A DNA stretch of 64,000 bases from Vicinamibacterales bacterium (GTDB lineage: Bacteria > Acidobacteriota > Vicinamibacteria > Vicinamibacterales > JAMQPK01). The position numbers and the translations under genes were made by a program. A model generated the notes under the pieces. That model was not told where the DNA came from. It did no database searches and worked only from the letters and a program-made list of their open reading frames with translations. Below, piece by piece: positions 2,068 to 55,271 of this stretch; position 1 is the stretch's first letter, and every line of letters starts with the position of its first letter. The stretch lies in assembly GCA_963821395.1 (NCBI GenBank), contig CAWGDY010000027.1, positions 9,407-73,406 on the forward strand, written 5' to 3'.

Positions 2068-5000
2068 CTAATCCGGCACCTGCTTCCATGCGAGCCGGAA
2101 GTACAACCCGGGGTCGTCGCCGCTCCCTTCGCTGCGGACGACCGATCCGGTCGGGCCAGCAGCGGTGAAAACCCGGTACGCAAACGCCAGCGACGTATCC
2201 TCTCCTGTCGTATTGCGCCATTGCTGCTGGCCACCCGGCACGCTCCAGCCCGTCGTGGGGGCCGACCAGCTGTTGTTCTCGTTCGAGAGCCAGCCAGCCA
2301 GCGCCAGCGTGCCAGCCGTGTTGGTCGCAAAGCTCGGCACCGTCACCGCACCGCCGCTGTGACCTGCTGAGAACACCGGCACGTCTATCTCTGGATGCAT
2401 TCCCGCCGACATGGCGAATGCGAAGTTATAGACGCTCAATGCTTCGGTTCCCGTCGTGTTCGTCACCGATGGCGTTCCGGCCCAGGTCCCGTTGAAGCGC
2501 GTCCAGAACACACGCGCCGTCACGCCGTTGGCCTGCGAAATGGACTCGGCGTTCCATGTCTGCCCGCCGGTGCCCGCCATACTCAGCGTAACGTTCCCTC
2601 GATAGGCCGCCACGATGACGTACAGGTCGCCGGCCTGCAGCGTCGCTGGAGGTGTCACGGCGCGTGGTCCCGGACCCGTGCCGTTCGTGTTGTCCACAGT
2701 CGGATAGTGACTGCCGACCGATCGGAACGTGAACGGGATGGGTGGCGGGGGCGGCAGCGCGGGCGTGAGGGCGTCCGCGATGTTCGAGTAGTTCGACGGA
2801 CTGAAGAGATTGTAGGCTCGCACCTGATACCGATACGTCGTTGTGCCGGCAACAGCGTTGTCGTTGTAGCTGGCCGTATTCGGTCCCACCACAGTGAGCG
2901 GGAGGAAGTTGGTGCAACCGATGCCGGCGCACCGCTCGATGTTGAATCCCGCTTCGTTGTTCGCGTTGTCAATCCAGGTCAGCGCCACTTGTCCGACCGA
3001 GGGCGTCGCCTGCAAGTCCGACGGATCTCCCGGAGGATTCGATGGCACCTCGAGCGCGCGGAAGCCCAGCCGGAAGTAGATGCCGGTATCTGGTCCACTC
3101 GCGCTCTGCGTGCGAACGATCGTTCCGGATGGCCCTGCTGGACCCAGGAGCCGATACGCGAACGCGACGGAACTGTCGGACCCGTTGCTGTTGCGCCACT
3201 GGGCTTGTCCGCCCGGCGTGCTCCAGCCGGCCGTCGGAGCAGACCACGAGTTGTTGTCGCCCGAAATCCAACCGGCCAGCGCCAGAACTCCCGTTGTGTT
3301 TGTCGTAAAGCTCGGCACCGTCACCGTCCCACCGCTGTGGCTGCCCGAGCCAAACGGGACGTCGATCTCCGGATAGAGCCCGGGCGCCATGTCAAAGGCC
3401 ATGCTGTAGACCGTCAGCGGCGACGTTCCGGTGGTGTTGCTGACGGCCGGGTTGGCCGTCCAGACGCCGTTGAACTGACTCCAGAACACGCGCACCGTTT
3501 GGCCATTGGCCTGGGTATTCGTCTCGCTCGTCCAGATCTGCCCGCCAGTCTCGGTCAACGTCAGCGTCGCCGTTCCTTGGTACGCCGCCACGATGACCAC
3601 CAGGTCGCCGAGCTGAAGCGATGCCGGCGGTACGATCGCCCGCGGGCCAGGTCCCGCTCCTTGATCGGCGTTCTCGACGGTCGGGAAGTGCGTGCCGACG
3701 CCACGGAAAGCAAACGCAGGTGTCGGTGTCGTTACGTCGGTGCTGGTCGAGTACTCCGAGGGGCCGAACACGTTGTTGGCCCGTACCCGATACCTGTATG
3801 TCGTCGTCCCGGCGACTGTGGTATCGCGATAGCTGGTGACGTTCGATCCAACCCCGGTCAGCGGTGCGAAGTTCGTGCACCCGGGATTGGTGCAGCGCTC
3901 GATCTGGAACGCAAATTCATTCGTCGATGTGTCCGTCCAGGTCAATTCGACCTGGCCGATCGATGCGCTTGCCAGCAGGTTCGCGGGATCGGACGGCGGC
4001 GTCGCGGGCGTAAGCTGCGTTGCCTTGAACGCCATCCGGAAGTAGAGACCGGTGTCCGGACCGTTCGTCTGCGTGCGGGCGATGGAGCCTGTCGCGCCCG
4101 CCGATGCGATGTTTCGGTACGCGAGCGCAATGGTGTTGTCCGCGCTCGAGTTGTTCCGCCACTGGGCCTGGCCACCAGGCATGCTCCAGCCGGTGGTCGG
4201 TGCCGCCCACGTGTTGTTGTCGGCCGAGATCCATCCCACCAGCGCCAGCGCTCCCGGCGTGCTGGTTGAGAAGCTCGGTACCGTCACTGTGCCACCGCTG
4301 TGGTTGCCCGATACGAAGGGCACGTCGATCTCGGGATACGTACCCGGCGCCAGGTCCACCGCGAAGCTGTAAACCGTGAGCGGCCCGGTACCGGTCGTAT
4401 TCGTGACCGCCGGATTCGCCGTCCAGGTGCCGTTGAACTGGGACCAGAACACGCGCACCGTCTGGCCGTTCGCCTGCGTATTGGCCTCGGCGGTCCACGC
4501 CTGCCCGCCCGTCTCCGACATCGTCAGCGTCGCTGTCCCTCCATACGCCGCCACAATCACTACCATGTCGCCGAGCTGAACCGCCGGTGGCGTTATCGCC
4601 CGAGGTCCAGGCCCGGGTCCGTCGGCGTTATCCACAGTGGGGAAGTGCGTGCCTACGCCAAGAGGCGTGAACGTCACCGGTGGAGCGACCGTGATTGAAA
4701 TCGTGGCCGCACTCGAGTCGACGCTGGGGCCGAACGCATTGCTGACACGGACCCAGTAGCTGGTCTGGGTCGTCAGCGCCGGGGTCGTGAAGTTGGCGCT
4801 GTTGGCCCCCACGGGCGTGGTCGTGGTACCCGACGGGCCCTGATACCACTGATACGAGAGATTCGTCCCGGTTGCGCCGACGCTGAGATTGGCCGTGGCC
4901 CCAGACACGATGGTCTGATTCTGCGGCTGCGTGGCAATGGCCGGGCCGACACCGATCGAGATTGTCGCGGTTGCCGAATTGACGCCGGGTCCGAACGCAT

Positions 5001-8000
5001 TGCTGACCCGCACCCAGTAACTGGTCTGCGTCGTCAGGTTCGGCGTCGTGAAGTTGGCGCTGTTACTGCCCACCGGCGTGGTGGTGGTGCCGGACGTGCC
5101 CTGATACCACTGATACGTGAGATTGGTGCCGGTGGCGCCGACGCTGAGATTGGCCGTGGTGTTCGACGCAATGGTCTGACTCTGCGGCTGGGTCCCGATC
5201 GCGGCAGCGACACCGATCGAGATGGTGGCGGTCGCCGAGTTGACGCTGGGCCCGAATGCGTTGCTGACGCGGACCCAGTAGCTGGTCTGCGTCGTCAGGT
5301 TCGGCGTGGTGAAGTTGGGGCTGTTACTGCCGACCAGATTCGTCGTATCGGGAGCGGTGCCGCGATACCACTGATACGTCAGATTCGTGCCGGTGGCGCC
5401 GACGCTGAGATTCGCCGAGGTGCCCGACGTGATGGTCTGGCTCTGCGGCGGCGTGCCGACGGCCGCGGCCACGCCGATCGAGATCGTGGCGGTCGCCGAG
5501 TCGACGCTGGGCCCGAACGCATTGCTCACACGGACCCAATAGCTGGTCTGCGTCGTCAGGTTCGGCGTCGTGAAGTTGGCGCTGTTCGTTCCTACCGAGT
5601 TCGACGTATCGGGGGCGGTACCCTGATACCACTGATACGTCAGACTCGTGCCGGTGGCGCCGACGCTGAGATTGGCCGTGGCATTGGAGGCAATCGTCTG
5701 ATTCTGCGGCGGCGTGCCGATGGCGGCGGCGACACCGATCGAGATGGTCGCGGCGCTGGAGTTGACGGCACCAAATGCATTGCTGACGCGGACCCAGTAG
5801 CTGGTCTGCGTCGTCAGATTCGGCGTGGTGAAGTTGGCGCTGTTCGTGCCCACCGCCGTGGTCGTGGTGCCTGATGGGCCTTGGTACCACTGATACGAGA
5901 GATTCTCCCCGGTCGCGCCGACGCTGAGATCGGCCGTGGTGCCCGACGCGATCGTCTGGCTCTGCGGGTGCGTGCTGATGGCAGCGCCGACGCCGATCGA
6001 GATAGTGGCGGTCGCCGAGTTGACGCTGGGCCCGAATGCATTGCTGACACGGACCCAGTAACTGGTCTGCGTGGTCAGGTTCGGCGTGGTGAAGTTCGGA
6101 CTGTTACTGCCGACCAGACTCGTCGTATCGGGTGCGGTACCGCGATACCACTGATACGAGAGATTCGTGCCGGTGGCGCCGACACTGAGATTGGCCGTGG
6201 TGTTCGACGCAATGGTCTGACTCTGCGGCTGCGTGCCGATGGCGGCGGCGACGCCGATCGAGATCGTCGCGGTTGCCGAGTTGACGCTGGGCCCGAACGC
6301 ATTGCTGACCCGCACCCAGTAGCTGGTCTGCGTGGTCAGGTTCGGCGTGGTGAAGCTTGAGCTGTTGCTGCCGACCGCATTCGACGTGTCTGGGGCGGTG
6401 CCTTGATACCACTGATACGAGAGATTGGTGCCGGTCGCGCCGATGCTGAGATTGGCGGTGGCTCCCGACGCGATCGTCTGACTCTGCGGCTGCGTGCCGA
6501 TGGCGGCGGCGATGCCGATCGAGATCGTCGCTGTCGCCGAGTTGACGCTGGGCCCGAACGCGTTGCTGACGCGGACCCAATAGCTGGTCTGCGTGGTCAG
6601 GTTCGGCGTGGTGAAGTTGGGACTGTTACTGCCGACCAGATTCGTCGTATCGGGAGCGGTGCCGCGATACCACTGATACGTCAGGTTCGTGCCGGTGGCG
6701 CCGACGCTGAGATTGGCCGTGGTGTTCGTCGTGATCGTCTGACTCTGCGGCTGCGTGCCGATGGCGGCGGCGACGCCGATCGAAATGGTGGCCGTCGCCG
6801 AGTCGAGGCTGGGCCCGAACGCATTGCTGACGCGGACCCAGTAGCTGGTCTCCGTCGTCAGGTTCGGCGTGGTGAAGTTGGGGCTGTTGCTGCCAACCGC
6901 CGTCGTCGTGTCGGGCGCGGTACCTTGGTACCACTGATAGATCAGATTCCCACCGGTGGCGCCGACGCTGAGATTAGCTGTGGTGTTCGACGCAATGGTC
7001 TGACTCTGCGGCTGTGTGCCGATGGCGGCGGCGACGCCGATCGAGATGACGGCGGCACTCGAGTCGACCGTCCCGTAGCTGTTGCTTACCCGCACCCAGT
7101 AGCTCGTGGCCACGGTCAGGTTCGGCGTGGTGAAGTTGGGGCTGTTCGTGCCCACCGCCGTGGTCGTGGTGCCTGATGGGCCTTGGTACCACTGATACGA
7201 GAGATTCTCCCCGGTCGCGCCGACGCTGAGATTGGCGGTGGCGCCCGACGCGATCGTCTGGCTCTGCGGCTGCGTGTCGATGGCGGCGCCGACGCCGATC
7301 GAGATGGTGGCGGTCGCCGAGTTGACGCTCGGCCCGAATGCGTTGCTGGCGCGCACCCAGTAGCTGGTCTGCGTGGTCAGGTTCGGCGTGGTGAAGTTGG
7401 GACTGTTACTGCCGACCAGATTCGTCGTATCGGGAGCGGTGCCGCGATACCACTGATACGAGAGATTGGTGCCGGTGGCGCTGACGCTGAGATTGGCCGT
7501 GGCGCCCGACGCGATCGTCTGACTCTGCGGCTGCGTGCCGATGGCGGCGGCGACGCCAATCGAGATCGTCGCGGTTGCCGAGTCGACGCTGGGGCCGAAC
7601 GCATTGCTGACCCGCACCCAGTAGCTGGTCTGCGTGGCCAAGTTCGGCGTGGTGAAGTTGGCGCTGTTGGTGCCGACCTGATTCGAGGTGTCGGGCGCGG
7701 TACCGCGGTACCACTGATACGAGAGATTCGTGCCGGTGGCGCTGACGCTGAGATTGGCCGTGGCCCCCGACGCGATCGTCTGACTCTGCGGCTGCGTGCC
7801 GATGGCGGGTGCGACGCCAATCGAGATTGTCGCGGTTGCCGAGTCGACGCTGGGGCCGAACGCATTGCTGACCCGTACCCAGTAGCTGGTCTGCGTCGTC
7901 AGGTTCGGCGTGGTGAAGTTGGCGCTGTTGGTACCCACCAGAGTCGTCGTGTCGGGCGCGGTGCCTTGATACCACTGATAGGTGAGCGGGGCTGTCCCGG

Positions 8001-11000
8001 TGGCGCCGACGCTGAGATTGGCCGTGGCCCCCGACGCGATGGTCTGACTTTGCGGCTGCGTCGTGATGCTCGCCGGGGTGCTGATGGCATCGGTCGTGAA
8101 CGACCAGGTTGGCCCGGTCACCGTCTGGTTCCCGTCGCTGACCGTCGCGTACCACTGGTACTGAGTATTCGGTGTCCGGCCAGCCCACGTGGTCTCGGCC
8201 GGAGTGCCTGACGGCACGCTGTTGTCCGTCCCGATCTGCGTGAACGGCACACCCTGCATGTTGAAGTCGAGCACGAACTGGCTGTTCGCGTCGGTCTCGA
8301 ACTGCAAGAGCTTCGGCGAGTACGTGTAGACGTAGATCTTGTTCTCGGACGGCTTGAAGGTCATGTAACGCAGCCAGCCGTCGCCGCCGTTCACACGGCT
8401 CTGGTAGTCGGACTCGAGCTGGTGAACCGTCCGGCTCGGGCAGGCCGCGTTGGTCGGCGTCGCATCCGATCGATTGGCCTCTCCCGGGTAGTGGCCGTTC
8501 AGGATGAGGAACACGTTGCAGTTCGGGACGATCAGATTGGTCCAGACCGTCGCGGCCGGCGTGCCATCCGTCGTCCGGTTGAGCACCGTCGTCGGACGGC
8601 TGCCCGAGTCGCTCAGGAACAGGTGCGTGGCGATGATGGCCTTGCGATTCGGGAATGCCTTGAGCACCCGGTCCGCCCACGCCACCGAATAGGTCGGCAT
8701 GTCGTACTCGAGGTGGATGACGACGAAGTCCATCCCGCCCACCGAGAAGAGCGAGTACTGATTCTTGTTCAGCCGGTTGATCGGATCGGTGAAGCTGAAC
8801 TGGTTCTGTCCAAGGTACCCGCCGTACCACGGGTACCCCGACATCCGGGATACGGGGAAGTACAGGTCATAGTTTGTCGACACGCCCGCCGAACTCATGT
8901 CGTGGTTGCCGGGAGCAATGCCGTACGGGACGGGGGGTGATGCGAGATCAAGTACGTCCATGCTCGCATCGGCCTTGGTCCACTCGGCGGGCTGAGCGTC
9001 GATGTGCTCGGCAATGTCGCCCAGGTGCGAGACGAACACGGTATTCAACGTTGGCCGGGAGCTGACGATCCACTGGGTCTGCTGGGTGAACGTCAGCGCG
9101 CGGTCTCCGTCGGCGTCGCTAGGATTGGTATCGTCGACATAATGCTGTGTGTCAGGGATGGCGACGATGGTGAAGTCACCCGCCGCCGCCGCGTTGGTGG
9201 CCCGGCCGAAGAACGTCACGTTCAGCGGCTGGCTCTCGGGATCCGAGACGTTGACGCTCAGGTTTGGTGCGTTGGTCTGGTCTGTGGCGCCATTCTCCGG
9301 CGTGTTCAACACCGGGAGATTCGGCGCCTGGTTGAAGACCAGGTTGAACGGCGCGCCGGCCGTGCGCGCCCAGCCGCTGCCGTTAATCGTGCCGTTGACC
9401 GGAATCGGGGTCGAGTCGAGGACAGTGGTCGTACTGCCGCTCTCGTTGAGACCCCAGCGCGCGACGAGGTTCGGCACGTTCAGGATTTGCTGGTTGATTC
9501 CCGCTTGAAGCTCCGACACGGTCAGCGCGCGATCCCAGATGCGCACTTCATCGATGACGCCGTTGAAGAAGCCTTCGGGTGTCCCGCTGGTGTTCAGCGC
9601 GGAACCGATCGAGGCATGCTGAATGCTGTCGAACCGGGGCGTGAAGGCACCCACCGCTGACGTGGCCTCGAGCGTGCCATCCAGGTACAAACGCCAGGTG
9701 CCGTCGCCGTAGGTCGCCGCGGCATGATGCCATGTGCCATCAGCGGGTATCGTCGTCACTCCCGCTATCGGGTGATTCAGGCCGGTATTGTTGTCCTCGA
9801 AATCGGCCGCCAGCACATCGCCGGTGGGGACGTCCTTGATGCCGAGGAAGAAGTTCATGTTGTTCGTGGTGGCTTCATCCTGAGCCCGGCCTTTGGCGAC
9901 GATCGGTATCGCCAGGAAGCCGCCGGTGCCCGTATCTGCCGGTGCGCCTTCGCCGTCGCGCTTGAACCATGCCTCGATCGTCATGGTCGAGACGCCCAGC
10001 CCGGGGGCTGCGCCAAAGGACACGTAGCCATTGGTTCCGGTGAAATCGATCGCGTTGTTTGGCTCGGTCGGATTCACGGTCACGGTGAGCTCATCAAATC
10101 CGTTGATCTCTCCGTCGGTGGCCGTCAGCCGAAGCACGTAGGTTCCAGGACCCGAGAAGGACGCCGTGGTCGTCGTCGTGTTCGGGTCATCGAATGTCAC
10201 GGTTCCAACGGCCGGCGTCTGGTTCGTCCATGTCGGGCTGACGTCGATGCCAGTGAAACCGTCGTCGTTCAGAGTTGCCGTGAGGGACGCATGGTTGGGC
10301 AGCGTGACGAACTGGTCCGCGCCGACGTTGACCATCGGCGGCAGATTGCCCGTGGCAGCCGTTACAGTAATGCTGACCGTGTCGCTGCGGACGTACTTGT
10401 TGTCGTCGACCGTCAACTGCAGAACATAGGTGCCGGCAGTGGTGAAGCCGACAGAGGTCACCGCGCTATTTGCGTTACCGAAGGCCGCGGCGGCCGGACC
10501 GCTCACCTGACTCCACGTGATCGTGTTCGGGCTGTCATCGGTGACGCTGCCGTTGAGTTCCGCCGCGCCGGCGTCGACTATTTGATCGGCGCCCGCGTTC
10601 ACGACGGGAGGCTGGCTGCCGGGCGCGCCGTGCACCGCGGCGGTGCCCGAATCGTTGAGTGCGTCGCCAGGGACCGGGATGAACTGCCAGTCGTACGACG
10701 AGTCGCGCAACGTGAACTTCATGATGCCGTGGTCGGTGTTGTTGCGAACTTCGCTGATCCCCGTCCTGAGATTTGGAAATGAACCGCTCACGGGGACGCC
10801 GCCGGTGCCGATGACGAACGTGCGGATACCGAAGGCGGGATCCGCGACGCCCAGCGCGTTCATCGGCGCCAGCCGCTCGTAGTTGTGCCAGTGGCCGCCG
10901 AGATAGATGTCGGTGCCGTAGTCGTAGAGGGCCTGCCACAGCGGCTGCGTGTACGCATGCATGTCGTCGTCGGAGCTGGAGCTGTAGCGCGGCCTGTGCC

Positions 11001-13968
11001 ACATCGCGATGATGTTGTTCGTCGGGCTGTTGGCGAGGTCGTCGCGCAGCCACTGTTCCTGTGGAGAACCTGCCGCGCATCCGTCTGCGTCCCAAAGCTC
11101 CGGCGACGCGCTGCACTCGCCGTTGAGGACAACGATGTGCCAGTTGCCGACGTTGTAGCTGTAGTAGCCGCCAAGCGTGCGATCGCCCGCGGGACCGTCC
11201 TGCACGCCATCGCCGTTGAAGTAGTCGTAATAGCCGGTCGCGCCCGGCGTGTTGTAGTCGTGATTGCCGGTCACCGGCCGCGTGCGCGCCTTGATGCCGG
11301 GACGGCCCCAGGTCGGCGTGTAGCAGGTGTCGAACTCGGCAGCCGTGCCGTTCACGTACGAGTTATCGCCGAGCGTGAACACCGGCCCTGGGAGCCCCTC
11401 GAGAAGCGTCGCGGTTGCGTTCGCGTTCGCGAGCGAATCTCCCGCGATACAGTTCGGCGCGACGTCTCCGGCGCCCAGCAGAATGAGGTTGACGGTGACC
11501 GTCATGTCGTCGAACGCCGATTTCGCGCCGTCGTCCGCAGTGAGGCGTAGCACATAGGTGCCCGCTTCCGTGAAGGTTGCGGTCGTGGCTGCCGAGGTGG
11601 CGCTGGCAAAGTTCACGACGCCAGGTCCGCTGACAAGCGTCCACAGGACGCCGAACGGGCCGTCATCGGTGGCAGCGCCGCTAAGCGTAGCGGTGCCGCC
11701 GAAGTCGATGACCCTGTCTGGCCCTGCCGTCACGATCGGGGTCTGATTCAGGCTCGCGAGGGGTGTCGCATCGTCTTCATTCGACGGTGCGGACGTATTG
11801 CCGAATCCGTCGACTGCGGTTACCACGTAGAAGTATTGAGTGCCATTCGCCGCGCCGAGATCGAGATAATTCGGCGACGTGACGAGAGTCGATCCATTGA
11901 GGGGAGCAATCGCTGTCGAGACGGGGCTCGTCAGGCTGCGATACACGTTGTAGCCCGCGAGATCCGACTCGGCATTCGCCGTCCATGTCAGCGAGACACG
12001 CGCGTTTAGTGGGTCAGCGAACAGGTTTTGCGGCGCCGCCGGCGGTGCGACATAGATAGGATACGGATAACCGGCGGTCCAGGTCGGCGTGCCGACCAGC
12101 GTACCGTTAATGGCCCTTGCGGAACCGGTCGCAACTAGGCCCGAAGCTTCGTTCAATGCCCAACGTCCAATCAGGGTGGGTTGCGTTGTCGGGTCGACCT
12201 CCTGAAACATCGAATTCTGAATTTGAACTTGGCTTCGCGCGACATTCCAGATTCGGACTTCGTCCATGAGGCCGTTGAAGAAGCCTGCCGCGGCCCCCGT
12301 CGATGTCATCGCAGTGCCGATACCAGCGTGCTGGATGCTGTCAAATCGTGGTGTGAAGGTGCCGAGAGTTGTCGTCTTCTCGAGTGCACCGTCGAGGTAG
12401 AGATTCCAGGTAGTCCCGTCGTACGTGACTGCCGCATGGTGCCAGGCAGTGGTGCTGATCGGGATTGGCGTTATGCCGGAAACGGGGTGATTGAGCCCGG
12501 TTCCCGTATCCTCGAAATCGGCGATAAGAACACCAGTTGTATCGTTGATGCCCAGAATGTAGTTCGTGTCCAGGTTGGAGCCGTCGGCCTGAGCCCTTCC
12601 CTTGGAGATCAACGGAATCGCGAGACCCGTAGTCGCATTCTCGAAGCCCCCGGCTCCGGTACTTGTTCCCACACCGAAGCCTGTCCGTTTAAACCAGGTT
12701 TCGATCGTAAAGGTTGAAGCGCCCAGAGCGCTTGTGCCGTCGGCGGGACCGAAAGTCACATACTGATTGATCCCATTGAATTGCATCGCTGCGCCTGCCA
12801 GCGCGTTTGGCGTTGCCACGACTGCGGTCGAAGGAGAGGAGAGATTGGCCGATGTATCGAGCGCCCTGACGGTGTAGCTGTAAAGCGTTCCGTTCGCGAC
12901 TGTGTTGTCCGTGAAGATTGCGCTTGTGAGAGGTGCGACGTTCAACGGTGTTCCGGAGCCGTTTCTGTACACGTTGTAGCCGGCCAGATCGAGCTCGGGA
13001 TTTTCAGGCCATGTGAGTGTAACCAGACCGTTGCCGATGTTCGCCGCGACGTTCTGCGGAACCGAGGGTGACACGCCATCCACAGGCAGAATATTTCCGA
13101 CGACTCGCCCCGGTCCGCTGACCAGCGTGCCATGCGGCCGGCCGGGGACTGAGTTGAGGGCCACTGAACCTGCGCCTTCGTTCAACCCCCAACGCCCGAT
13201 GAGCCCCGTGCCCGCGGTCACTTCCTTATACCTGTTGTCGGAGATTTCCTGCGCCGTGCGCGCGACGTTCCAGATACGGACCTCGTCGATCACGCCGTTG
13301 AAGAAACCGCCAGCGGTTCCGGCAGACGTGAGCGCGCTACCGATCGATGCGTGTTGAATGTTGTCGGAGCGTGGGATGCGCGTGCCCGTCGGCAGCGCCG
13401 GAACTGTGATGTTGCCAGGTAGAGCGACGCCGTTGAGATAGAGGGTAAAGATACCCGTTGAGCTGGTGTATGTCGCAGCGGCGTGATACCACGTGTTGTC
13501 ACTGATCGCTTGGGTCGAGGTGACCGCATGGTTGATTCCGGCTGCGGTATCTTCGAAATCGGCCGCCAGCGTATAGACGCCGGCCGAGAGACTTAATCCG
13601 AGGAAGTAGTTCATGTCGATGTTCGAACCGTCGCCTTCACCCCGTCCCTTCGCGACCAGCGGAACCGCTCCTCCTGATAAGCCGCCTCCGCCCGCTGCAC
13701 TGGTCGTCGTTGTCACGCCCGCGCCCTCTTTCTTGAACCAGAGTTCGAGCGTGAAGTCTGTCGCGTTGAGCCCGTTCGGACCCGTCGCTGGGCCGAACGT
13801 GATGTATTGATTCGCGGCTGTCGTTCCGAGGAAATCAATCGCATTTACAAATGTGGCGATCTGACCCGCCGGCCGGTCCCCGTTCATCAGCGCAAGGATG
13901 ACAACCGTAAGGATGCCGACACCAAAGCGCGTGGCAATGCTGAATCGGGCGCGGATGTACTGAGTCAT
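2068..13968 (-). CDS. giant secreted/surface multidomain protein: 3 LamG, FN3, PKD-like, 2 metallophosphoesterase domains, 13 Ig-like repeats, triplicated unassigned module with FN3
   Basis: A single intact ORF (2068..13983). The ATG at 13968 has GAGGA 8 nt upstream, and the N-terminus has a signal/anchor helix (FGVGILTVVILALMNG). LamG signatures occur three times (FTLELWFKK...FFNGVIDEVRIWNVART). FN3 units are present (LDLAGYNVYR...YSYTVRALD). PKD-like units are present (AGPDRVIDFGGTATLSGAATDD...GTYVLRLTADDG). Phosphoesterase motifs are present (GDNSY, GNHDY, GGHWHNYER; DTQHY, GNHDM, LNGHYPGE). Confidence 0.9.
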   Translation of the reverse strand: MTQYIRARFSIATRFGVGILTVVILALMNGDRPAGQIATFVNAIDFLGTTAANQYITFGPATGPNGLNATDFTLELWFKKEGAGVTTTTSAAGGGGLSGGAVPLVAKGRGEGDGSNIDMNYFLGLSLSAGVYTLAADFEDTAAGINHAVTSTQAISDNTWYHAAATYTSSTGIFTLYLNGVALPGNITVPALPTGTRIPRSDNIQHASIGSALTSAGTAGGFFNGVIDEVRIWNVARTAQEISDNRYKEVTAGTGLIGRWGLNEGAGSVALNSVPGRPHGTLVSGPGRVVGNILPVDGVSPSVPQNVAANIGNGLVTLTWPENPELDLAGYNVYRNGSGTPLNVAPLTSAIFTDNTVANGTLYSYTVRALDTSANLSSPSTAVVATPNALAGAAMQFNGINQYVTFGPADGTSALGASTFTIETWFKRTGFGVGTSTGAGGFENATTGLAIPLISKGRAQADGSNLDTNYILGINDTTGVLIADFEDTGTGLNHPVSGITPIPISTTAWHHAAVTYDGTTWNLYLDGALEKTTTLGTFTPRFDSIQHAGIGTAMTSTGAAAGFFNGLMDEVRIWNVARSQVQIQNSMFQEVDPTTQPTLIGRWALNEASGLVATGSARAINGTLVGTPTWTAGYPYPIYVAPPAAPQNLFADPLNARVSLTWTANAESDLAGYNVYRSLTSPVSTAIAPLNGSTLVTSPNYLDLGAANGTQYFYVVTAVDGFGNTSAPSNEDDATPLASLNQTPIVTAGPDRVIDFGGTATLSGAATDDGPFGVLWTLVSGPGVVNFASATSAATTATFTEAGTYVLRLTADDGAKSAFDDMTVTVNLILLGAGDVAPNCIAGDSLANANATATLLEGLPGPVFTLGDNSYVNGTAAEFDTCYTPTWGRPGIKARTRPVTGNHDYNTPGATGYYDYFNGDGVQDGPAGDRTLGGYYSYNVGNWHIVVLNGECSASPELWDADGCAAGSPQEQWLRDDLANSPTNNIIAMWHRPRYSSSSDDDMHAYTQPLWQALYDYGTDIYLGGHWHNYERLAPMNALGVADPAFGIRTFVIGTGGVPVSGSFPNLRTGISEVRNNTDHGIMKFTLRDSSYDWQFIPVPGDALNDSGTAAVHGAPGSQPPVVNAGADQIVDAGAAELNGSVTDDSPNTITWSQVSGPAAAAFGNANSAVTSVGFTTAGTYVLQLTVDDNKYVRSDTVSITVTAATGNLPPMVNVGADQFVTLPNHASLTATLNDDGFTGIDVSPTWTNQTPAVGTVTFDDPNTTTTTASFSGPGTYVLRLTATDGEINGFDELTVTVNPTEPNNAIDFTGTNGYVSFGAAPGLGVSTMTIEAWFKRDGEGAPADTGTGGFLAIPIVAKGRAQDEATTNNMNFFLGIKDVPTGDVLAADFEDNNTGLNHPIAGVTTIPADGTWHHAAATYGDGTWRLYLDGTLEATSAVGAFTPRFDSIQHASIGSALNTSGTPEGFFNGVIDEVRIWDRALTVSELQAGINQQILNVPNLVARWGLNESGSTTTVLDSTPIPVNGTINGSGWARTAGAPFNLVFNQAPNLPVLNTPENGATDQTNAPNLSVNVSDPESQPLNVTFFGRATNAAAAGDFTIVAIPDTQHYVDDTNPSDADGDRALTFTQQTQWIVSSRPTLNTVFVSHLGDIAEHIDAQPAEWTKADASMDVLDLASPPVPYGIAPGNHDMSSAGVSTNYDLYFPVSRMSGYPWYGGYLGQNQFSFTDPINRLNKNQYSLFSVGGMDFVVIHLEYDMPTYSVAWADRVLKAFPNRKAIIATHLFLSDSGSRPTTVLNRTTDGTPAATVWTNLIVPNCNVFLILNGHYPGEANRSDATPTNAACPSRTVHQLESDYQSRVNGGDGWLRYMTFKPSENKIYVYTYSPKLLQFETDANSQFVLDFNMQGVPFTQIGTDNSVPSGTPAETTWAGRTPNTQYQWYATVSDGNQTVTGPTWSFTTDAISTPASITTQPQSQTIASGATANLSVGATGTAPLTYQWYQGTAPDTTTLVGTNSANFTTPNLTTQTSYWVRVSNAFGPSVDSATATISIGVAPAIGTQPQSQTIASGATANLSVSATGTNLSYQWYRGTAPDTSNQVGTNSANFTTPNLATQTSYWVRVSNAFGPSVDSATATISIGVAAAIGTQPQSQTIASGATANLSVSATGTNLSYQWYRGTAPDTTNLVGSNSPNFTTPNLTTQTSYWVRASNAFGPSVNSATATISIGVGAAIDTQPQSQTIASGATANLSVGATGENLSYQWYQGPSGTTTTAVGTNSPNFTTPNLTVATSYWVRVSNSYGTVDSSAAVISIGVAAAIGTQPQSQTIASNTTANLSVGATGGNLIYQWYQGTAPDTTTAVGSNSPNFTTPNLTTETSYWVRVSNAFGPSLDSATATISIGVAAAIGTQPQSQTITTNTTANLSVGATGTNLTYQWYRGTAPDTTNLVGSNSPNFTTPNLTTQTSYWVRVSNAFGPSVNSATATISIGIAAAIGTQPQSQTIASGATANLSIGATGTNLSYQWYQGTAPDTSNAVGSNSSSFTTPNLTTQTSYWVRVSNAFGPSVNSATATISIGVAAAIGTQPQSQTIASNTTANLSVGATGTNLSYQWYRGTAPDTTSLVGSNSPNFTTPNLTTQTSYWVRVSNAFGPSVNSATATISIGVGAAISTHPQSQTIASGTTADLSVGATGENLSYQWYQGPSGTTTTAVGTNSANFTTPNLTTQTSYWVRVSNAFGAVNSSAATISIGVAAAIGTPPQNQTIASNATANLSVGATGTSLTYQWYQGTAPDTSNSVGTNSANFTTPNLTTQTSYWVRVSNAFGPSVDSATATISIGVAAAVGTPPQSQTITSGTSANLSVGATGTNLTYQWYRGTAPDTTNLVGSNSPNFTTPNLTTQTSYWVRVSNAFGPSVNSATATISIGVAAAIGTQPQSQTIASNTTANLSVGATGTNLTYQWYQGTSGTTTTPVGSNSANFTTPNLTTQTSYWVRVSNAFGPGVNSATATISIGVGPAIATQPQNQTIVSGATANLSVGATGTNLSYQWYQGPSGTTTTPVGANSANFTTPALTTQTSYWVRVSNAFGPSVDSSAATISITVAPPVTFTPLGVGTHFPTVDNADGPGPGPRAITPPAVQLGDMVVIVAAYGGTATLTMSETGGQAWTAEANTQANGQTVRVFWSQFNGTWTANPAVTNTTGTGPLTVYSFAVDLAPGTYPEIDVPFVSGNHSGGTVTVPSFSTSTPGALALVGWISADNNTWAAPTTGWSMPGGQAQWRNNSSADNTIALAYRNIASAGATGSIARTQTNGPDTGLYFRMAFKATQLTPATPPSDPANLLASASIGQVELTWTDTSTNEFAFQIERCTNPGCTNFAPLTGVGSNVTSYRDTTVAGTTTYRYRVRANNVFGPSEYSTSTDVTTPTPAFAFRGVGTHFPTVENADQGAGPGPRAIVPPASLQLGDLVVIVAAYQGTATLTLTETGGQIWTSETNTQANGQTVRVFWSQFNGVWTANPAVSNTTGTSPLTVYSMAFDMAPGLYPEIDVPFGSGSHSGGTVTVPSFTTNTTGVLALAGWISGDNNSWSAPTAGWSTPGGQAQWRNSNGSDSSVAFAYRLLGPAGPSGTIVRTQSASGPDTGIYFRLGFRALEVPSNPPGDPSDLQATPSVGQVALTWIDNANNEAGFNIERCAGIGCTNFLPLTVVGPNTASYNDNAVAGTTTYRYQVRAYNLFSPSNYSNIADALTPALPPPPPIPFTFRSVGSHYPTVDNTNGTGPGPRAVTPPATLQAGDLYVIVAAYRGNVTLSMAGTGGQTWNAESISQANGVTARVFWTRFNGTWAGTPSVTNTTGTEALSVYNFAFAMSAGMHPEIDVPVFSAGHSGGAVTVPSFATNTAGTLALAGWLSNENNSWSAPTTGWSVPGGQQQWRNTTGEDTSLAFAYRVFTAAGPTGSVVRSEGSGDDPGLYFRLAWKQVPD
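2071..4677 (-). repeat. three copies of an unassigned ~220-aa module (X1 4024-4677, X2 3052-3717, X3 2071-2733), separated by two FN3 units
   Basis: Shared blocks: GVGTHFPTV[DE]NA...GPGPRA[IV].PPA.LQ.GD[LM].VIVAAY.G..TL.[LM].[EA]TGGQ.W..E...QANG.T.RVFW..FNG.W...P.V.NTTGT..L.VY...F.[ML][AS].G..PEIDVP...G.HSGG.VTVPSF.T[NS]T.G.LAL.GW[IL]S..NN.W.APT.GWS.PGGQ.QWRN...D....AYR.....G..G...R......D.G.YFR[LM]. Confidence 0.85.
4678..8067 (-). repeat. 13 tandem ~261-bp coding repeats, each one Ig-like domain of ~87 aa
   Basis: Unit consensus: IGTQPQSQTIASGATANLSVGATGTNLSYQWY[QR]GTAPDTTN.VGSNS.NFTTPNLTTQTSYWVRVSNAFGPSV[ND]SATATISIGVAAA. It is counted 13 times in the translation. 3390 nt divided by 13 gives about 261 nt per unit. 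Copies are near-identical at DNA level. Confidence 0.9.
8270..9170 (-). other. metallophosphoesterase-like domain 2 within the giant protein (approximate bounds)
   Basis: Motifs IVAIPDTQHYVDD, HLGDIAEH, IAPGNHDM, ATHLFL and LILNGHYPGE are present. This second domain is more divergent. Confidence 0.6.
10780..11480 (-). other. metallophosphoesterase (calcineurin-like) domain 1 within the giant protein (approximate bounds)
   Basis: Motifs LGAGDVAP, FTLGDNSYVNG, VTGNHDYNTPG, MWHRPRYSS and YLGGHWHNYER appear in the canonical order. Confidence 0.75.
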
Positions 13969-14142
13969 CGGACAGGTCCTCAATTGATTGGGGGAGGCGG
14001 ACTATGGCCGCGGCTGCGCGGACGCGCAACTATTTGTGAAGGCACCATTGGATGTCCACGAAACCGGTCGATGGCGCGCATCGCACGCATCGCGCGCATG
14101 ACGCGCGTAGCGGAAGGACGGAAATTTAGGGGAGTTGACTGA

Positions 14143-15810: not shown

Positions 15811-15929
15811 TTCAGCCTCCTGCAAAACGTGTTGGTGAGACGAGAAGTGTCGCACAGTTGATCGGCCAGAGTCACTTCCGGCCGTGCTGCCGGGCACGCG
15901 CGGGTGAGGCTTCAGCCGGGCCTGGAAGG

Positions 15930-16298
15930 TTATTGAAGAACGAGCAGGTCTTCGAACGCCAGCGCGCCGTGATACTGAACGCGGTCGCTGGTGAGCGTGG
16001 CCACCTGACAGCGGAGCACGGTGGCCTTCACCCTGTACGGGGCCGTCGGGCTGCCCAACTGCAGTTCGACCCGCATGCCCGGGAACAGCCGGCATTCGGT
16101 CTCGAGCAGCACGCCCCCGGGGCTGACATCGACGATGCGGGCGCTTCGACCGGGCCGCAGGCGACCGGTCGACATGCCGGTCCAGTCCGCGGTCGAGACG
16201 CGGGGAAAGGCTCTTCGTTCGGGAGTTTCGGTGGGTAATGCTTCGGCCACGGAAGTGGCCAAAGATACGACGGCGGCTCTTGGGAGGCAATCCTCCAT
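15930..16298 (-). CDS. stand-alone PilZ-domain protein (putative c-di-GMP receptor)
   Basis: 122 aa from the internal ATG of ORF 15930..16703. It carries both PilZ signatures: RRAFPR (RxxxR) and DVSPGG (D/NxSxxG). Confidence 0.75.
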   Translation of the reverse strand: MEDCLPRAAVVSLATSVAEALPTETPERRAFPRVSTADWTGMSTGRLRPGRSARIVDVSPGGVLLETECRLFPGMRVELQLGSPTAPYRVKATVLRCQVATLTSDRVQYHGALAFEDLLVLQ

Positions 16299-16369
16299 CG
16301 GGCTATGCCGACGGATTAGCCACGAACGGCTGGCCGGGGGAGCGGGCCGTCGCGTGACCGTGTGCTGGC

Positions 16370-16753
16370 CTACGCCGTCGCGATATCGGGACCCGCGGCA
16401 CGCAGGCGACCGAAGCCGGTCAGCTGACGCTTGGGAAGGTGCAGCCGGGCGCTCGCCTCGATCATCGCGAATCTCCCGGCGCCGGCAAACCGGACACGAT
16501 AGTGCCGGACGGTGCCGTGTGACGTATCGGGCATGACGGTCATGCACACGTCGGCTTCGTTCCGGTTGTCGACAAACTCGACGAAATCGATTTCCGGCTT
16601 GATCTCGTCTTCGAGCCAGGCGTCGCAATCCAGAAACACTTTCAGGTCGCGGGAATCGTATTGGCCGGTCATGTCGGCCTCTTGCCGGGCAATGGCGGCC
16701 CACGCCATCAACATGGCCCGCACGGGGGTAGACGTAACGGTGGTCGCAATCAT
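16370..16753 (-). CDS. small acidic hypothetical protein, paralog P1 of a 3-member family
   Basis: Start MIATTVTSTPVRAM, with GGAGAG 5 nt upstream. It is colinear with the ORFs at 21600..21977 and 26198..26539. Confidence 0.7.
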   Translation of the reverse strand: MIATTVTSTPVRAMLMAWAAIARQEADMTGQYDSRDLKVFLDCDAWLEDEIKPEIDFVEFVDNRNEADVCMTVMPDTSHGTVRHYRVRFAGAGRFAMIEASARLHLPKRQLTGFGRLRAAGPDIATA

Positions 16754-17184: not shown

Positions 17185-17273
17185 CGGAAAGCGGGTACTG
17201 TAACCCTGAATCGACGGGGCACGGCAGCCTTTTCATGGCCCCGTTTCGTCTAATTCCCCCGAGGAGGGTCCGC

Positions 17274-19684
17274 ATGAGCGGCATCGTTCAGGACCTGCGG
17301 TACGCGCTTCGCGGTTTGAGAAGAAACCCGGCGTTCACGTCGGTCGCGCTCGTCACCCTGGCGCTCGGCATCGGCGCCAACACGGCGATGTTCAGCGTGC
17401 TGAACGCCGTGCTGCTGAGGCCGCTTCCATATCCGGCTTCCCACGAGCTCGCGATGTTGTGGACGGAGCGGCCGAACCAGAACCTGCGCGAGGGGCGGTC
17501 GGCCTATCACGACGTCGAAGAATGGCGCGCGCGCAGCCGCACGCTGGCAGACGTCGGGGTTTTCGATCCGATGACGGCCAGGCTCACCGCGCCGGGTGAG
17601 CTGGAGCGAATCAGCACACTGAGGCTCTCGCCGAATGTCTTTGCGATCCTCGGCGTGCAGGCGTATCGGGGTCGCGTCTTCTCGACCCAGGAAGCCGACG
17701 AGCGGCGCAGGGTCGCCGTCGTCAGCTATCGATTCTGGCAGTCCCGCCTCGGCGGCGCCGACAACGTCATCGGCTCGACGATCGAGCTCGACGGCCTTCC
17801 GTCCGAAGTGATCGGTATCCTGCCCGCGGATTTCCGGTGGTCCGACTCAGACGTCTGGGAACCGCACACCCTGTTTCCCGACTGGGACGTACGTCGAGGT
17901 GAGCGTGGCGATGCGTCCTGGTTCGTGCTCGCGCGGTTGCGTCCCAACGTGACGATCGAGCAGGCGCAGGGAGAGCTGAGCGGCATCGCACGGGGTCTCG
18001 ACGAGCAGCGGATCGCGTCCGAGCAGGGACGCGGCATCGGCGTCATGCCGCTGAGCCTGCATATCGTCGGACCACGATGGCGGCTGACCCTGTGGATGCT
18101 GACGGGCGCGGTGTTCTTCGTCCTGCTCATCGGCGTGACGAACATCACGAGCCTGTCGCTGGCTCGCAGCACGGGACGCGCGCGCGAGTTCGCGTTGCGC
18201 GCGGCGCTTGGCGCGAGCCGCGGTCGCGTGCTGCGCCAGTTGTTTTCCGAAAGCCTGGTACTTGCCGTCCTTTCCGGACTTGGCCGGTCTCGCCGTTGCC
18301 TGGGTCGCACTTCCGATCATCGTGGCGTTCAAGCCGGCCGATCTCGTCACGCTGGGCGAGGTGCGACTCGACGTAGCCACTCTTGCGTGGACGCTGGGGC
18401 TGTCGATGCTCACCGGTGTGCTCGTGGGCCTCGTTCCCGCCATCACCATGACTCGCTGGAATCTTCAGGCGCCGCTGCACGAATCAGCCCGCGGGACGTC
18501 GGCGGGCGCTTCCGCGCGTCTTACGCGCCGCGCGCTCGTGGTGGCGGAATTCGCGCTGGCGATCGTGCTGCTCGTCGGCGCCGGGTTGCTGACGCGCAGC
18601 CTGATGAACGTGCAGCGCGTCAACCCTGGTTACAGCTCCGAGCGCGTGCTCTCGATGCAGCTCGCGATTCCACCAATCGACGCGACCAATCAGCGGGCTG
18701 ACTACTACCAACAGGTTTTGGATCGGGTCGTCAACACGCGCGGCGTCGAGGGCGCCGGCGTCATCGGCGATCTCTTCATCAATGCGAGCCCGGAACAGAG
18801 CGTGACGGTGGAAGGGAGCGCGCGAGGCGCCGAACGGTTGCGGCTGCGGCGCGACGAGGTGAGCGGCGGCCTGTTCGAAACGCTGCGGATTCCGCTCGTT
18901 CGCGGGCGTGCGTTCTCCTCGGAAGACGGGCCGAACGCTCCCAGGGCGGCGATCGTCAACGAAACGATGGCGCGCCGGCTGTGGCCGGGGCAGGATTCCG
19001 TCGGCAAACGATTCAAGATGGGTGTGACCTCGGCGGATGGTCCCTGGTTCACGGTAGTCGGCGTGGTCGGCGACGTGCGCCGGCAGGGGCTCGAAGAAGA
19101 ACCTGCCGCCCAGATGTTCGAGCCCGTGGCCCAGAATCCATCGCGGCTCGCGACGCTGCTGGTCCGCACCTCTGGCGAGCCCATCGCGATGGCTGCCACG
19201 CTCCGCGCGGCCATTCAGCAGATCGATCGGCGCGGGCTGGTGTACGGAGTGAACACGCTTGGCGCGCGCATCTCGGGATTCCAGGCGGAGCGGCGGTTCC
19301 AGACATGGTTGCTCATGGTGTTCTCGAGCCTCGCACTGCTCCTGGCCGCAATCGGTATCTACGGCGTGGTGCAGTACCTCGATTTCGACGCGCACGCGGG
19401 AAATCGGCGTGCGCATGGCGGTCGGCGCCGATCGTCGCGACATCTTCAAGATGGTGGTGGGGGAAGGGCTGAAGATGAGCCTGACCGGTCTGGCGCTCGG
19501 TCTCGTTGGGGCCCTGTGGCTGGGGCACCTGGGAGCGAGCCTGCTCTTCGGTGTCTCGTGGATGGACCCTGTGACCTACGTAGGCGTCTCGCTGCTTTTG
19601 ACGACGGTAGCGCTCGCCGGCTGCTATTTCCCAGCACGCCGCGCCGCGCGTATCGATCCGCTTGTAGCGCTCAAATACGAATAA
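17274..19684 (+). pseudogene. ADOP-type duplicated MacB/FtsX-like permease, disrupted by two 1-nt insertions
   Basis: Homology to the intact paralog (23792..26197) runs through three frames: ORF 17235..18701, then 18208..19734, then 19259..19684. The frame switches fall near 18279-18283 (cttgGcc) and 19377-19379 (tacCtcg). The N-terminus (LRYALRGLRRNPAFTSVALVTLALGIGANTAMFSV) and C-terminus (RRAARIDPLVALKYE) are family-typical. Confidence 0.8.
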
Positions 19685-19699
19685 ATTGGGTGCGGTGGC

Positions 19700-19717
19700 A
19701 CAGGGCTTCAGCCCTGT
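19700..19717. repeat. REP-like GC-stem tetraloop hairpin
   Basis: ACAGGGC-TTCA-GCCCTGT. Related copies lie at 22820, 22858 and 63773, plus a degenerate copy at 48848. Confidence 0.6.
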
Positions 19718-19718
19718 T

Positions 19719-19771
19719 GAGATTAGGAGACTAAGAGCGATTCTTCTTTCGAGAAGAATTCTCCTAATCTC
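19719..19771. terminator. nested palindrome between convergent genes (putative bidirectional terminator)
   Basis: The outer arms are GAGATTAGGAGA ... TCTCCTAATCTC. The inner hairpin is ATTCTTC-tttcga-GAAGAAT. It lies between the permease stop (19684) and the PhoX-like gene stop (19795). Confidence 0.55.
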
Positions 19772-19794: not shown

Positions 19795-21189
19795 CTACTT
19801 CGGAATCGTAAATTCGATGGTCCTGTCGTTGCCGCTCGATGGGTGCTGGATGTTCACCCAGCCTCTGCGCTTGTCGGTCGGGTCGAAATACAGGCCGGTG
19901 AATTCCGAGCCGCCTGTCCCGTTCGATGCCCAGCGGCCGATGCCTTCGCCCTGATCGGTCAAATCGCCGTCCTTGTTCAGATCCTTCGCGAACCAGATGT
20001 CGTCGTCGGAGCCGCCATTCCGGTCTTCGATGATGTAGATGTTTCCGTCGTGGTCGATGGCCAGATTGTCCGGGTTGGCCAGCGCCGTGCCCACCGCTGC
20101 GCCCGTGGCGAGATCGATGGTGTTTCGGTTCGCGAACACTGAGATCGTGTTGTTCTTGAGATCGATCCGGTAGACCTCGTGCGTCGTGGTCGTTGTCATG
20201 TAGAGATAGTCGACGCCGCTCAGCGTCTGGATTTGCAGATCCTCCGGGCGCTGGTAATCGGTTCCTTTGAAGGATGGCAGGTTGGTGGTGTTGCGGGCAT
20301 CCACCGACGTGACGCCGTTCGAGTCGGTGATCGTGAGCGCGCCTGGCAGGGGAGCGCCATTCACATCAGTGAACGGAACCCACGTGAAGGCTCCCGTCGC
20401 GTTCGCCACGCTCCCGTCGCCGACGCGCAAGACGAAGGTCTGTCCCGCAGCGAAGTAGTCGGCCTGACCGCCCTTGACCTTGCCGAAGTTGGCCGCCGAC
20501 GTGAACCTGTAGACGTTGCCGCCGTTGAGCTCATCGATGAAGTACATGTTGCCGGGCTTGTCGAACTGAACGCCCTCATGCGACGTGCGCGGGACGACGT
20601 TCCGATGCACGAAGTCGGCGCCCGCATTGCTCAGGCCTGTCACCGGGTTGAGGATGCCCGGGGCTTCGATCGGGTTCTTCAGCTCGAAGAGCCGGCCGTA
20701 GATTTGCGGATGTCCGACGTCGCCGAGGGTCGACCAGGACTCTTCGGCGGTAATCAGCGTTCCCCAAGGCGTCCAGTAACACGCGTCGAACGAGACATAG
20801 CGCCCTGCGGCCGGGCTTTGCCAGATCGTGTCGGTTACACCAGTCTCCAGGTCGTGGCGTTGCACGCCTGAATTGCCCGTCTCGAAGACGGTGAACAGGT
20901 AGCGGCCCTTGTGAGGTCCCGTCTCATTCACGGTGATCATGTCCCACGAACCCGAGTTCGGCTTGTTTGCGGCGAGCTGTGTGGTGCGCTCCGCAATGGA
21001 CTGCTGGTGAAAATCGGGATTGCCGAACGTGATGGGCTCGTCTTCGCTGAGGACGGGGATGGCAGGGGACGTTGAAGCGGTGAGCGGTGTGTAATCCGAG
21101 AATCGTGTGCCATCTGCGACGAGGACCGTTCCCGCAAGCACCAGACCTCCCACGGCGACGAGCCTCGCGCGATGAATCGGCATCTTCAT
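19795..21189 (-). CDS. secreted PhoX/DUF839-like beta-propeller protein
   Basis: Start MKMPIHRARLVAVGGLVLAG (signal peptide, GGAGA upstream). The C-terminal motif NPDNLAIDHDGNIYIIEDRNGG and the overall pattern resemble PhoX-type (DUF839) phosphatases. Assignment is by motif recognition only. Confidence 0.65.
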   Translation of the reverse strand: MKMPIHRARLVAVGGLVLAGTVLVADGTRFSDYTPLTASTSPAIPVLSEDEPITFGNPDFHQQSIAERTTQLAANKPNSGSWDMITVNETGPHKGRYLFTVFETGNSGVQRHDLETGVTDTIWQSPAAGRYVSFDACYWTPWGTLITAEESWSTLGDVGHPQIYGRLFELKNPIEAPGILNPVTGLSNAGADFVHRNVVPRTSHEGVQFDKPGNMYFIDELNGGNVYRFTSAANFGKVKGGQADYFAAGQTFVLRVGDGSVANATGAFTWVPFTDVNGAPLPGALTITDSNGVTSVDARNTTNLPSFKGTDYQRPEDLQIQTLSGVDYLYMTTTTTHEVYRIDLKNNTISVFANRNTIDLATGAAVGTALANPDNLAIDHDGNIYIIEDRNGGSDDDIWFAKDLNKDGDLTDQGEGIGRWASNGTGGSEFTGLYFDPTDKRRGWVNIQHPSSGNDRTIEFTIPK

Positions 21190-21439
21190 ATTCGATTTCT
21201 CCAGTCGCGCCAACAAGGGTTCGTGTGAACGTTGTCCCGCAGGCAGGCGGCTGGCGCGAACCTTCCTGTTCGGGGTACTCGACTCGTGCGCACAAGTCGG
21301 TCGACGAACCTAGTTATAGAAAGCGGATGTTGCGCGAGGGAGAATGGGACATCACGCGCGAGCAAAATTTCAGACGCGGGTTGTGTGGTGAATCCCGACA
21401 CCATGTCTGTGAAGCGACGACCGTGCGACGCAACGATCG

Positions 21440-55104: not shown

Positions 55105-55271
55105 GCCAGATTCTAACGGCAGACCGCCGGAAAAGAGATAGTCCCGCGCCCGGGAGACAAAAGTCCGCATCCCGGTCTCGCCCACCGAACAGCGGCGCAA
55201 TTTGGGCCCGAACTCACGGCACGCACCGGCAGCAAGTTTGCCTAGGCAAACCACGTCTACCTCGTCCAAGG

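Follow-up and report, generated by a model that had tools for sequence, protein, structure and literature searches.

A triplicated, unnamed module at the end of a giant putative surface protein of a Vicinamibacterales bacterium has relatives in predicted pilus-tip proteins and in phage structural gene blocks

The stretch of 64,000 nucleotides analysed here (contig CAWGDY010000027.1 of a Vicinamibacterales bacterium, phylum Acidobacteriota; hereafter the window) was found to carry a giant open reading frame (ORF) whose product ends in three copies of a module of about 220 residues, designated X. The triplet makes up the last 870 residues of the protein. X is a real and widespread domain family that has no name, and not an orphan, as a profile built from the three copies matched 789 representatives at E ≤ 1e-3, and 631 at E ≤ 1e-10, among 1.84 billion clusters. 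Homologs of X recur in four settings: at the N-terminus of MshQ-like proteins, as the C-terminal head of pilin-like proteins, in structural gene blocks of tailed phages and in giant surface proteins. On this distribution it seems somewhat probable that X is a distal binding head, trivalent in the window protein, on an enzyme-bearing fibre.

The three copies had been delimited in a preliminary description of this DNA, and translation and alignment recovered them at the same positions (Table 1), together with all of the sequence blocks quoted for them: GVGTHFPTVDNA..GPGPRA, LQ.GD..VIVAAY, TGGQ.W and RVFW..FNG.W, followed by PEIDVP, HSGG.VTVPSF, LAL.GW.S..NN.W.APT.GWS.PGGQ.QWRN and YFR. They align end to end, the other two sharing 74% and 62% identity with copy 1, with pairwise identities of 62–74% among the three and a mean column identity of 79%. 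The protein terminates 4 residues past copy 3 (..FRLAWKQVPD*). When the genome (5.69 Mb, 57 contigs) was searched with the three-copy profile, only these three places were matched, at E values of about 1e-130, and the similarity of the repeats is therefore far beyond chance. Both of the spacers of about 100 residues contain the IERC..GC pair that had been pointed out earlier. Their designation as fibronectin type III (FN3) units is tentative and based on motifs: W.D...E.GF.IER and Y.Y.V.A look FN3-like by eye. No Pfam fn3 match was obtained at E ≤ 1 (the only match was a weak one to Ig_J_second, E 0.046) and no PDB sequence matched.

Searches of Pfam, NCBIfam, PHROGs and PDB sequences with single modules and with profiles of 3 and 71 sequences gave no match to X, so that its earlier portrayal as a module without a named domain holds, and no profile match to a known carbohydrate-binding, sorting or lectin domain was found. 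Lectins of the concanavalin A-like (ConA-like) and Laminin_G_3 type and carbohydrate-binding modules resemble X in being all-beta and of similar size and in the kinds of proteins that carry them; one protein can even contain both. However, no relationship to X is detectable: Pfam gave no concanavalin A-like lectin or Laminin_G_3 match in X, and hhalign of X against the LamG_3 copies of the giant protein itself returned a probability of 0.1%, on which X was rejected as a LamG relative. Weak matches to Phage_Coat_A (Pfam; filamentous-phage g3p) were seen in 6 of 71 family members (best E 9.6e-5).

Residues conserved across the family are P13, D15, P30/31, G37-D38, G58-G59-Q60-x-W62, F78-W79, N83-G84-x-W86, P90 and D119 in the first half of the module, and W150, D154/N156, W158, W165, Q173-x-R175-N176, G179, D181 and D210 in the second. 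Q60 and W62 are invariant, and D15, D38, Q60, N83, D154/N156, Q173, R175, N176 and D181 form a family-wide polar set. About half of the conserved positions map to loops of the structure model. The family motifs P.DN, GDL, GGQ.W, FW.(R/Q)FNG.W..NP, DDN.W and Q(Y/W)RN..G.D are present in all three window copies, in each of which the Tyr of the QYRN motif is a Trp. Of the homologs collected, 100 are stand-alone proteins of ≤290 residues; X lies at the N-terminus of 82 others, at the C-terminus of 35 and inside 18.

The structure of copy 2 was predicted with AlphaFold2. With an alignment of 71 sequences an all-beta model of 14 strands was obtained (predicted local distance difference test (pLDDT) 92.9, predicted template-modelling score 0.91). 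With only the three window copies as the alignment the model was poor (pLDDT 61); Foldseek results for it were discarded as meaningless, and the fold comparisons given here use the 71-sequence model. From the confident model and the roughly 100 stand-alone homologs of ≤290 residues, X is predicted to fold autonomously. Foldseek against the PDB gave nothing below E 0.02, with template-modelling (TM) scores of ≤0.3. Jelly-roll, ConA and cupin folds appeared there only as noise (ConA at E > 0.05 and TM < 0.2), and because the jelly-roll similarity is at noise level X is not called a jelly roll.

Against BFVD, Foldseek returned 47 matches at E < 1e-3 and probability 1.0 over about 230 columns, both sides of the comparison being predicted models. 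TM scores were 0.52–0.75 for 46 of the 47 and 0.47 for the weakest, most of the best 16 lying at 0.65–0.75. The matches comprise uncharacterised proteins of Caudovirales, proteins annotated as minor tail proteins (Mycobacterium phages Hawkeye, Shauna1, Tweety and Phabba; Gordonia phage GodonK) and large phage proteins with GDPD or CenC-like modules. X thus shares a predicted fold with phage minor tail or tail-tip proteins and has closer sequence homologs in structural blocks of uncultured tailed phages; however, window X is only 13–25% identical in sequence to the named BFVD proteins, and the phage side has no solved structure and owes its function to annotation.

The first pilus setting is that of the MshQ-like proteins, which carry DUF6701 and belong to MSHA-type type IV pili. 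A C-terminal DUF6701 was present in 10 of 58 multi-domain homologs, usually with Ig-like and Laminin_G_3 domains between it and X. The N-terminal 210 or so residues of MshQ-like proteins are homologous to X at E 1e-31 to 1e-35; in three of the DUF6701-positive proteins (P0036, P0038 and P0044) the X profile matched over positions 15–219 at E 1e-33 to 1e-35. In the DUF6701-bearing homologs X begins immediately behind the point where the signal peptide is predicted to be cleaved, judged by eye from an AxA|AITYF motif, and the genes lie directly behind three prepilin-type genes in Methylotenera (locus L021) and in a member of the Burkholderiaceae (L043). For V. cholerae, MshQ has been predicted, from AlphaFold models only, to dock via its extreme C-terminus on the minor pilin MshP, and has been proposed as the functional equivalent of the PilC/PilY1 tip adhesins (PMC13533445). 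If this docking by the C-terminus is correct, the N-terminal X would be the most distal element of the pilus. DUF6701 proteins with ice-binding DUF3494 heads in the same slot have been described (PMC11645318), which fits a docking module with exchangeable surface-binding heads. Like the window protein, MshQ-like proteins are large, multi-domain surface proteins with LamG and Ig domains, and a quick tree places them among the sequences from outside the Acidobacteriota that are nearest to the window copies. The window protein differs from them in having no DUF6701, no adjoining pilin genes, and X at the C-terminus rather than the N-terminus and in three copies rather than one.

In the second pilus setting X forms the C-terminal 210 or so residues of proteins of 360–485 residues that have a pilin-like N-terminus without Glu5. 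Such proteins were found in Syntrophaceae, Thermodesulfobacteriota and 'Deltaproteobacteria' metagenome-assembled genomes (MAGs; L012-L016, L020) and among Nitrospirae proteins (P0182, P0171, P0195), and their X domains are 37–43% identical to window X. In at least 6 Syntrophaceae/Thermodesulfobacteriota loci the gene stands directly behind three canonical GFTLIE pilin genes, and in L016 the gene order is T2SSF, three N_methyl pilins, the X protein, PilM-PilN, PilO and secretin. From this gene position and the missing Glu5, not from a family match, we take the pilin-fused protein to be a candidate GspK/PilX-type tip subunit. In systems of that type the tip minor pilin is the fourth pilin, lacks Glu5 and has a large globular domain inserted or appended; likewise X is the globular part of a pilin-like protein in the same gene position in Syntrophaceae/Thermodesulfobacteriota and Nitrospirae. 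The window protein, by contrast, has no pilin-like N-terminus.

Sequence homologs of X with 25–40% identity were located on 21 IMG/VR contigs, while tblastn of one window module and one stand-alone homolog against 50,697 deposited phage genomes gave no match. The X genes lie within structural gene blocks: a 249-residue X protein is encoded by the third gene after the tape-measure gene (L055), and elsewhere the X gene is found behind a 1255-residue protein with a tail-fibre match (L065), between the major head gene and a tape-measure-like gene (L069), or ahead of the terminase, portal and major head genes (L052). In most of the phage proteins X starts at residue 1–5 and is followed by 0–600 variable residues; in L062 it is C-terminal.

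Elsewhere the fusion partners of X are mostly carbohydrate-binding or Ig-like, namely Malectin, GBD_T9SS_assoc, Laminin_G_3, an L-type lectin domain and CBM_2; further partners are Por_Secre_tail (together with GBD_T9SS_assoc), Calx-beta and fn3. In Chitinophagaceae, tandem secreted paralogs that consist of X only (about 250 residues, ending in YRTNMPxYLLD) lie downstream of a gene for 9665 residues. On the JGI contig concerned (Ga0573897_019, Chitinophagaceae-like; L004, 7565–11687) that gene is followed by genes of 256, 128, 245, 250 and 250 residues, at least 2 of which (P0177 and P0205) encode secreted X-only paralogs with the conserved tail YRTNMPxY(L/M)(L/F). X-only proteins without a signal peptide start with MAITYF (for example P0043, P0148, P0156, P0187, P0196, P0170, P0216 and P0226) and end in the recurring tails ..LLGVG(R/P), ..LGVG and ..G(F/I)FG(M/I/L). 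These short tails might be docking peptides.

The closest relatives are Vicinamibacterales MAGs, and three X copies in the same order were present in 5 of 5 orthologous loci. Orthologous copies are 75–95% identical, against 57–73% between paralogs. Copy 1 is 77–94% identical to its ortholog in four of these loci (L007-L010), with dN/dS of 0.12–0.25. Overall, dN/dS (Nei-Gojobori) is 0.06–0.34 between orthologs and 0.18–0.25 between paralogs, and the copies are under purifying selection. The phylogeny is a quick tree only, in which each window copy falls in with its own orthologs and copy 3 is the first to split off, leaving copies 1 and 2 as sisters. Orthologs being closer than paralogs, this branching and the low dN/dS together indicate that the triplication predates these species and that all copies have been maintained. 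X was found in 6 of 13 genomes of the genus of the window and in none of 138 genomes searched from 78 other genera of the same order, and this restriction to one genus within the order suggests a lineage-specific gain. The quick tree joins the acidobacterial copies to X sequences of MshQ-like and of some pilin-fused proteins at a Shimodaira-Hasegawa-like approximate likelihood-ratio support of 92, below the cut-off of 95; this grouping hints that the module may have come from a pilus-tip protein.

Some further observations concern the related loci. Window copy 1 is closest to that of L007 (94%) and copy 3 to that of L008 (95%), a mosaic similarity that suggests recombination between lineages within the giant gene. 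In another Vicinamibacterales MAG (ENA contig_6711; L006, 1683–10918) gene calling splits the ortholog of the giant gene into three, of 1819, 871 and 305 residues; the breaks are most likely frameshift errors rather than real pseudogenisation. In a further Acidobacteriota MAG (L022), a region of 16.6 kb contains four X copies that are spread over several genes and both strands (1050–1718 and 8001–8675 on the forward strand, 13422–14012 and 15911–16579 on the reverse), and these are sister to the window clade in the quick tree.

Upstream of X, Pfam identified 3 Laminin_G_3 domains, K319L-like PKD domains, 2 calcineurin-like Metallophos domains and 13 Ig_7 stretches (E 2.5e-91, the first repeat starting at residue 1971) in the giant protein. 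Its N-terminus has a basic stretch followed by a hydrophobic one, which may be a signal peptide or a signal anchor, and the protein is presumably surface-exposed. The coordinates are collected in Table 1.

Table 1. Position of the giant ORF and of its C-terminal parts within the window.
Feature	Position	Strand	Remarks
Giant ORF	2068..13983	minus	open for 3971 codons from TTG; 3966 residues from ATG at 13968
Stop codon of giant ORF	2068-2070	minus	
Ig-like array, ~13 repeats (Pfam Ig_7, CHU_C-associated)	4678..8073	minus	putative stalk preceding X; boundaries approximate
X copy 1	4024..4677	minus	residues 3103-3320
Spacer 1	3718..4023	minus	FN3-like by motif only (..LTWTDTSTNEFAFQIERCTNPGC..YRYRVRA..)
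X copy 2	3052..3717	minus	residues 3423-3644; copy modelled by AlphaFold2
Spacer 2	2734..3051	minus	FN3-like by motif only (..LTWIDNANNEAGFNIERCAGIGC..YRYQVRA..), then PPPPPIP linker
X copy 3	2071..2733	minus	residues 3751-3971; most divergent copy

In both pilus settings, where the orientation can be deduced, X stands at the outer end, and here it lies beyond the putative Ig stalk; a binding head is the simplest mechanism. On this view X would recurrently serve as the most distal head of a filamentous appendage. The array of about 13 Ig-like repeats would serve as the stalk of the molecule of about 4000 residues, and the three heads, with spacers of about 100 residues between them, would be placed at the free C-terminal end, opposite the N-terminal signal or anchor segment. 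They would bind an external ligand multivalently, most plausibly a polysaccharide or the envelope of another cell, and so hold the phosphoesterase-bearing fibre on its substrate or surface. That the activity is binding, that the ligand is a glycan and that multivalency is the reason for three copies are points that we infer. The preliminary description had left the module as a ligand-binding, anchoring or sorting unit; the predicted distal position on pilus tips, the phage structural blocks and the minor-tail fold favour ligand binding, and sorting is disfavoured.

Several points weigh against X as a binding head. The polar set is identical in pili, phages and giant proteins, which would not be expected of heads with different receptors, and a shared ligand or metal, a structural network or catalysis would each explain it just as well. 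The majority of the phage proteins have X at the extreme N-terminus, ahead of a variable C-terminal extension; virion-attachment domains, not receptor-binding ones, are classically found there. The published model that places MshQ at the pilus tip is a predicted one. For the window protein the pilus setting holds by homology only, because the window has no pilin-like gene and its genome no DUF6701: PF20419 was absent from the 3971-residue protein, from the genome of the window (94% complete) and from 14 control genomes. Finally, the export and the orientation of the giant protein would follow from its N-terminal hydrophobic segment, the one indication of either.

A bolder version of the binding-head proposal is that X belongs to an undescribed fold family that has passed between the tail tips of phages, the tips of type IV pili and giant adhesins, that one common ligand is bound through the invariant Asp/Gln/Arg/Asn-Trp site, and that three tandem copies fold into an intramolecular pseudo-trimer mimicking a trimeric phage receptor-binding head. 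Taken as a whole, this would be an unlikely combination.

It is likewise unlikely that the C-terminal modules serve as a self-anchor, binding an envelope polymer of the producer (lipopolysaccharide, capsule or exopolysaccharide) with the enzymatic N-terminal part facing outward. Such a role would suit a terminal triplicated array whose copy number is fixed in all orthologs. Neither Pfam nor NCBIfam matched PEP-CTERM, Por_Secre_tail/T9SS C-terminal domain, LPXTG or SLH in the giant protein, so that no anchor of these kinds is recognisable, and if the N-terminal segment is a cleaved signal peptide another retention element would be needed. Triple SLH or LysM anchors also form a terminal array of three similar modules on a large surface protein; however, they are related to X neither in sequence nor in fold, SLH being helical and of about 55 residues, and X is elsewhere single and N-terminal. 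Wherever the orientation can be deduced (in MshQ-like, pilin-fused and phage structural proteins) X lies away from the attachment end, and homologs in phages and pili must bind targets that are foreign. Envelope polymers are general, yet X is confined to a single genus of the order.

The strictly or nearly invariant Asp/Gln/Arg/Asn constellation, kept in all contexts, could also be read as the site of a small enzyme, for instance a polysaccharide-modifying or depolymerising domain of the kind borne by surface fibres and phage tails. Depolymerases are frequent on the tail proteins of phages, and the carbohydrate-binding modules to which X is fused are usual companions of catalytic domains. Yet no solved enzyme fold is similar in the PDB comparison and no Pfam or NCBIfam enzyme model matches X. 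Three tandem catalytic copies would be unusual, the conserved Tyr of QYRN is replaced in every window copy, and the giant protein already has two phosphoesterase domains. An enzymatic X is accordingly held to be rather improbable.

A structural adaptor that docks or oligomerises proteins onto a filament, baseplate or partner would account for the phage proteins in which X is N-terminal and conserved and the C-terminal extensions are variable. The short conserved tails of the stand-alone homologs (..LGVG, ..GFFGM, YRTNMPxYLLD) could then be docking strands, and the tandem X-only paralogs beside the 9665-residue gene in Chitinophagaceae would fit as well. Docking is, however, assigned to the opposite, C-terminal end of MshQ-like proteins (PMC13533445), the N-terminal pilin helix is the docking element of the pilin-fused proteins, and some phage proteins consist of X alone or have it at the C-terminal end (L055, L064, L062). 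The adaptor role is considered quite doubtful. A sorting or secretion signal for a dedicated export or attachment system, to which the C-terminal X of the window protein could be likened, is very improbable because the position of X is free (N-terminal, C-terminal, internal or stand-alone, in the numbers given above); moreover, X is a unit of 220 residues with a predicted autonomous fold, present as three spacer-separated repeats, phage virion genes contain it, no Pfam or NCBIfam sorting-domain model matches it, and no secretion gene lies beside the giant ORF in the window.

The neighbours of the giant ORF are genes for a Band_7 protein, an NHL-repeat protein, duplicated MacB/FtsX permeases and PhoX. 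The 64-kb window contains neither secretion nor pilus genes, and none of its ORFs has a prepilin-like N-terminus. The duplicated MacB_PCD/FtsX permease genes are at 17235–19734 and 23792–26197 on the forward strand and the PhoX alkaline phosphatase gene at 19795–21216 on the reverse; near a phosphoesterase-bearing ORF, a link to phosphate scavenging is conceivable. The window also encodes, on the forward strand, two further giant surface-type proteins, both without X: one of 2000 residues (26809–32811) with Laminin_G_3, DUF11 and an Ig_3/I-set array, and one of 1956 residues (55008–60878) with 3 Laminin_G_3, 5 He_PIG, Big_9, cadherin-like and CHB_HEX_C_1 domains.

Binding heads on surface fibres are known as a kind. 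The X family is unnamed and has neither a profile model nor a solved structure, and our searches met no description of its combined presence on pilus tips, in tail genes of phages and in giant adhesins. The unnamed module spans hundreds of clusters, covering MSHA-type pilus tips, tip pilins from anaerobic deltaproteobacteria, structural proteins of tailed phages and giant surface proteins from soil bacteria. Should X be a binding head, this would define the business end of MshQ-type pili, link the recognition modules of pilus tips and phage tails by common descent, and help to annotate many phage tail genes now listed as 'hypothetical'. For the Vicinamibacterales bacterium itself, it would suggest how a phosphoesterase-bearing fibre of 4000 residues may be tethered to its target.

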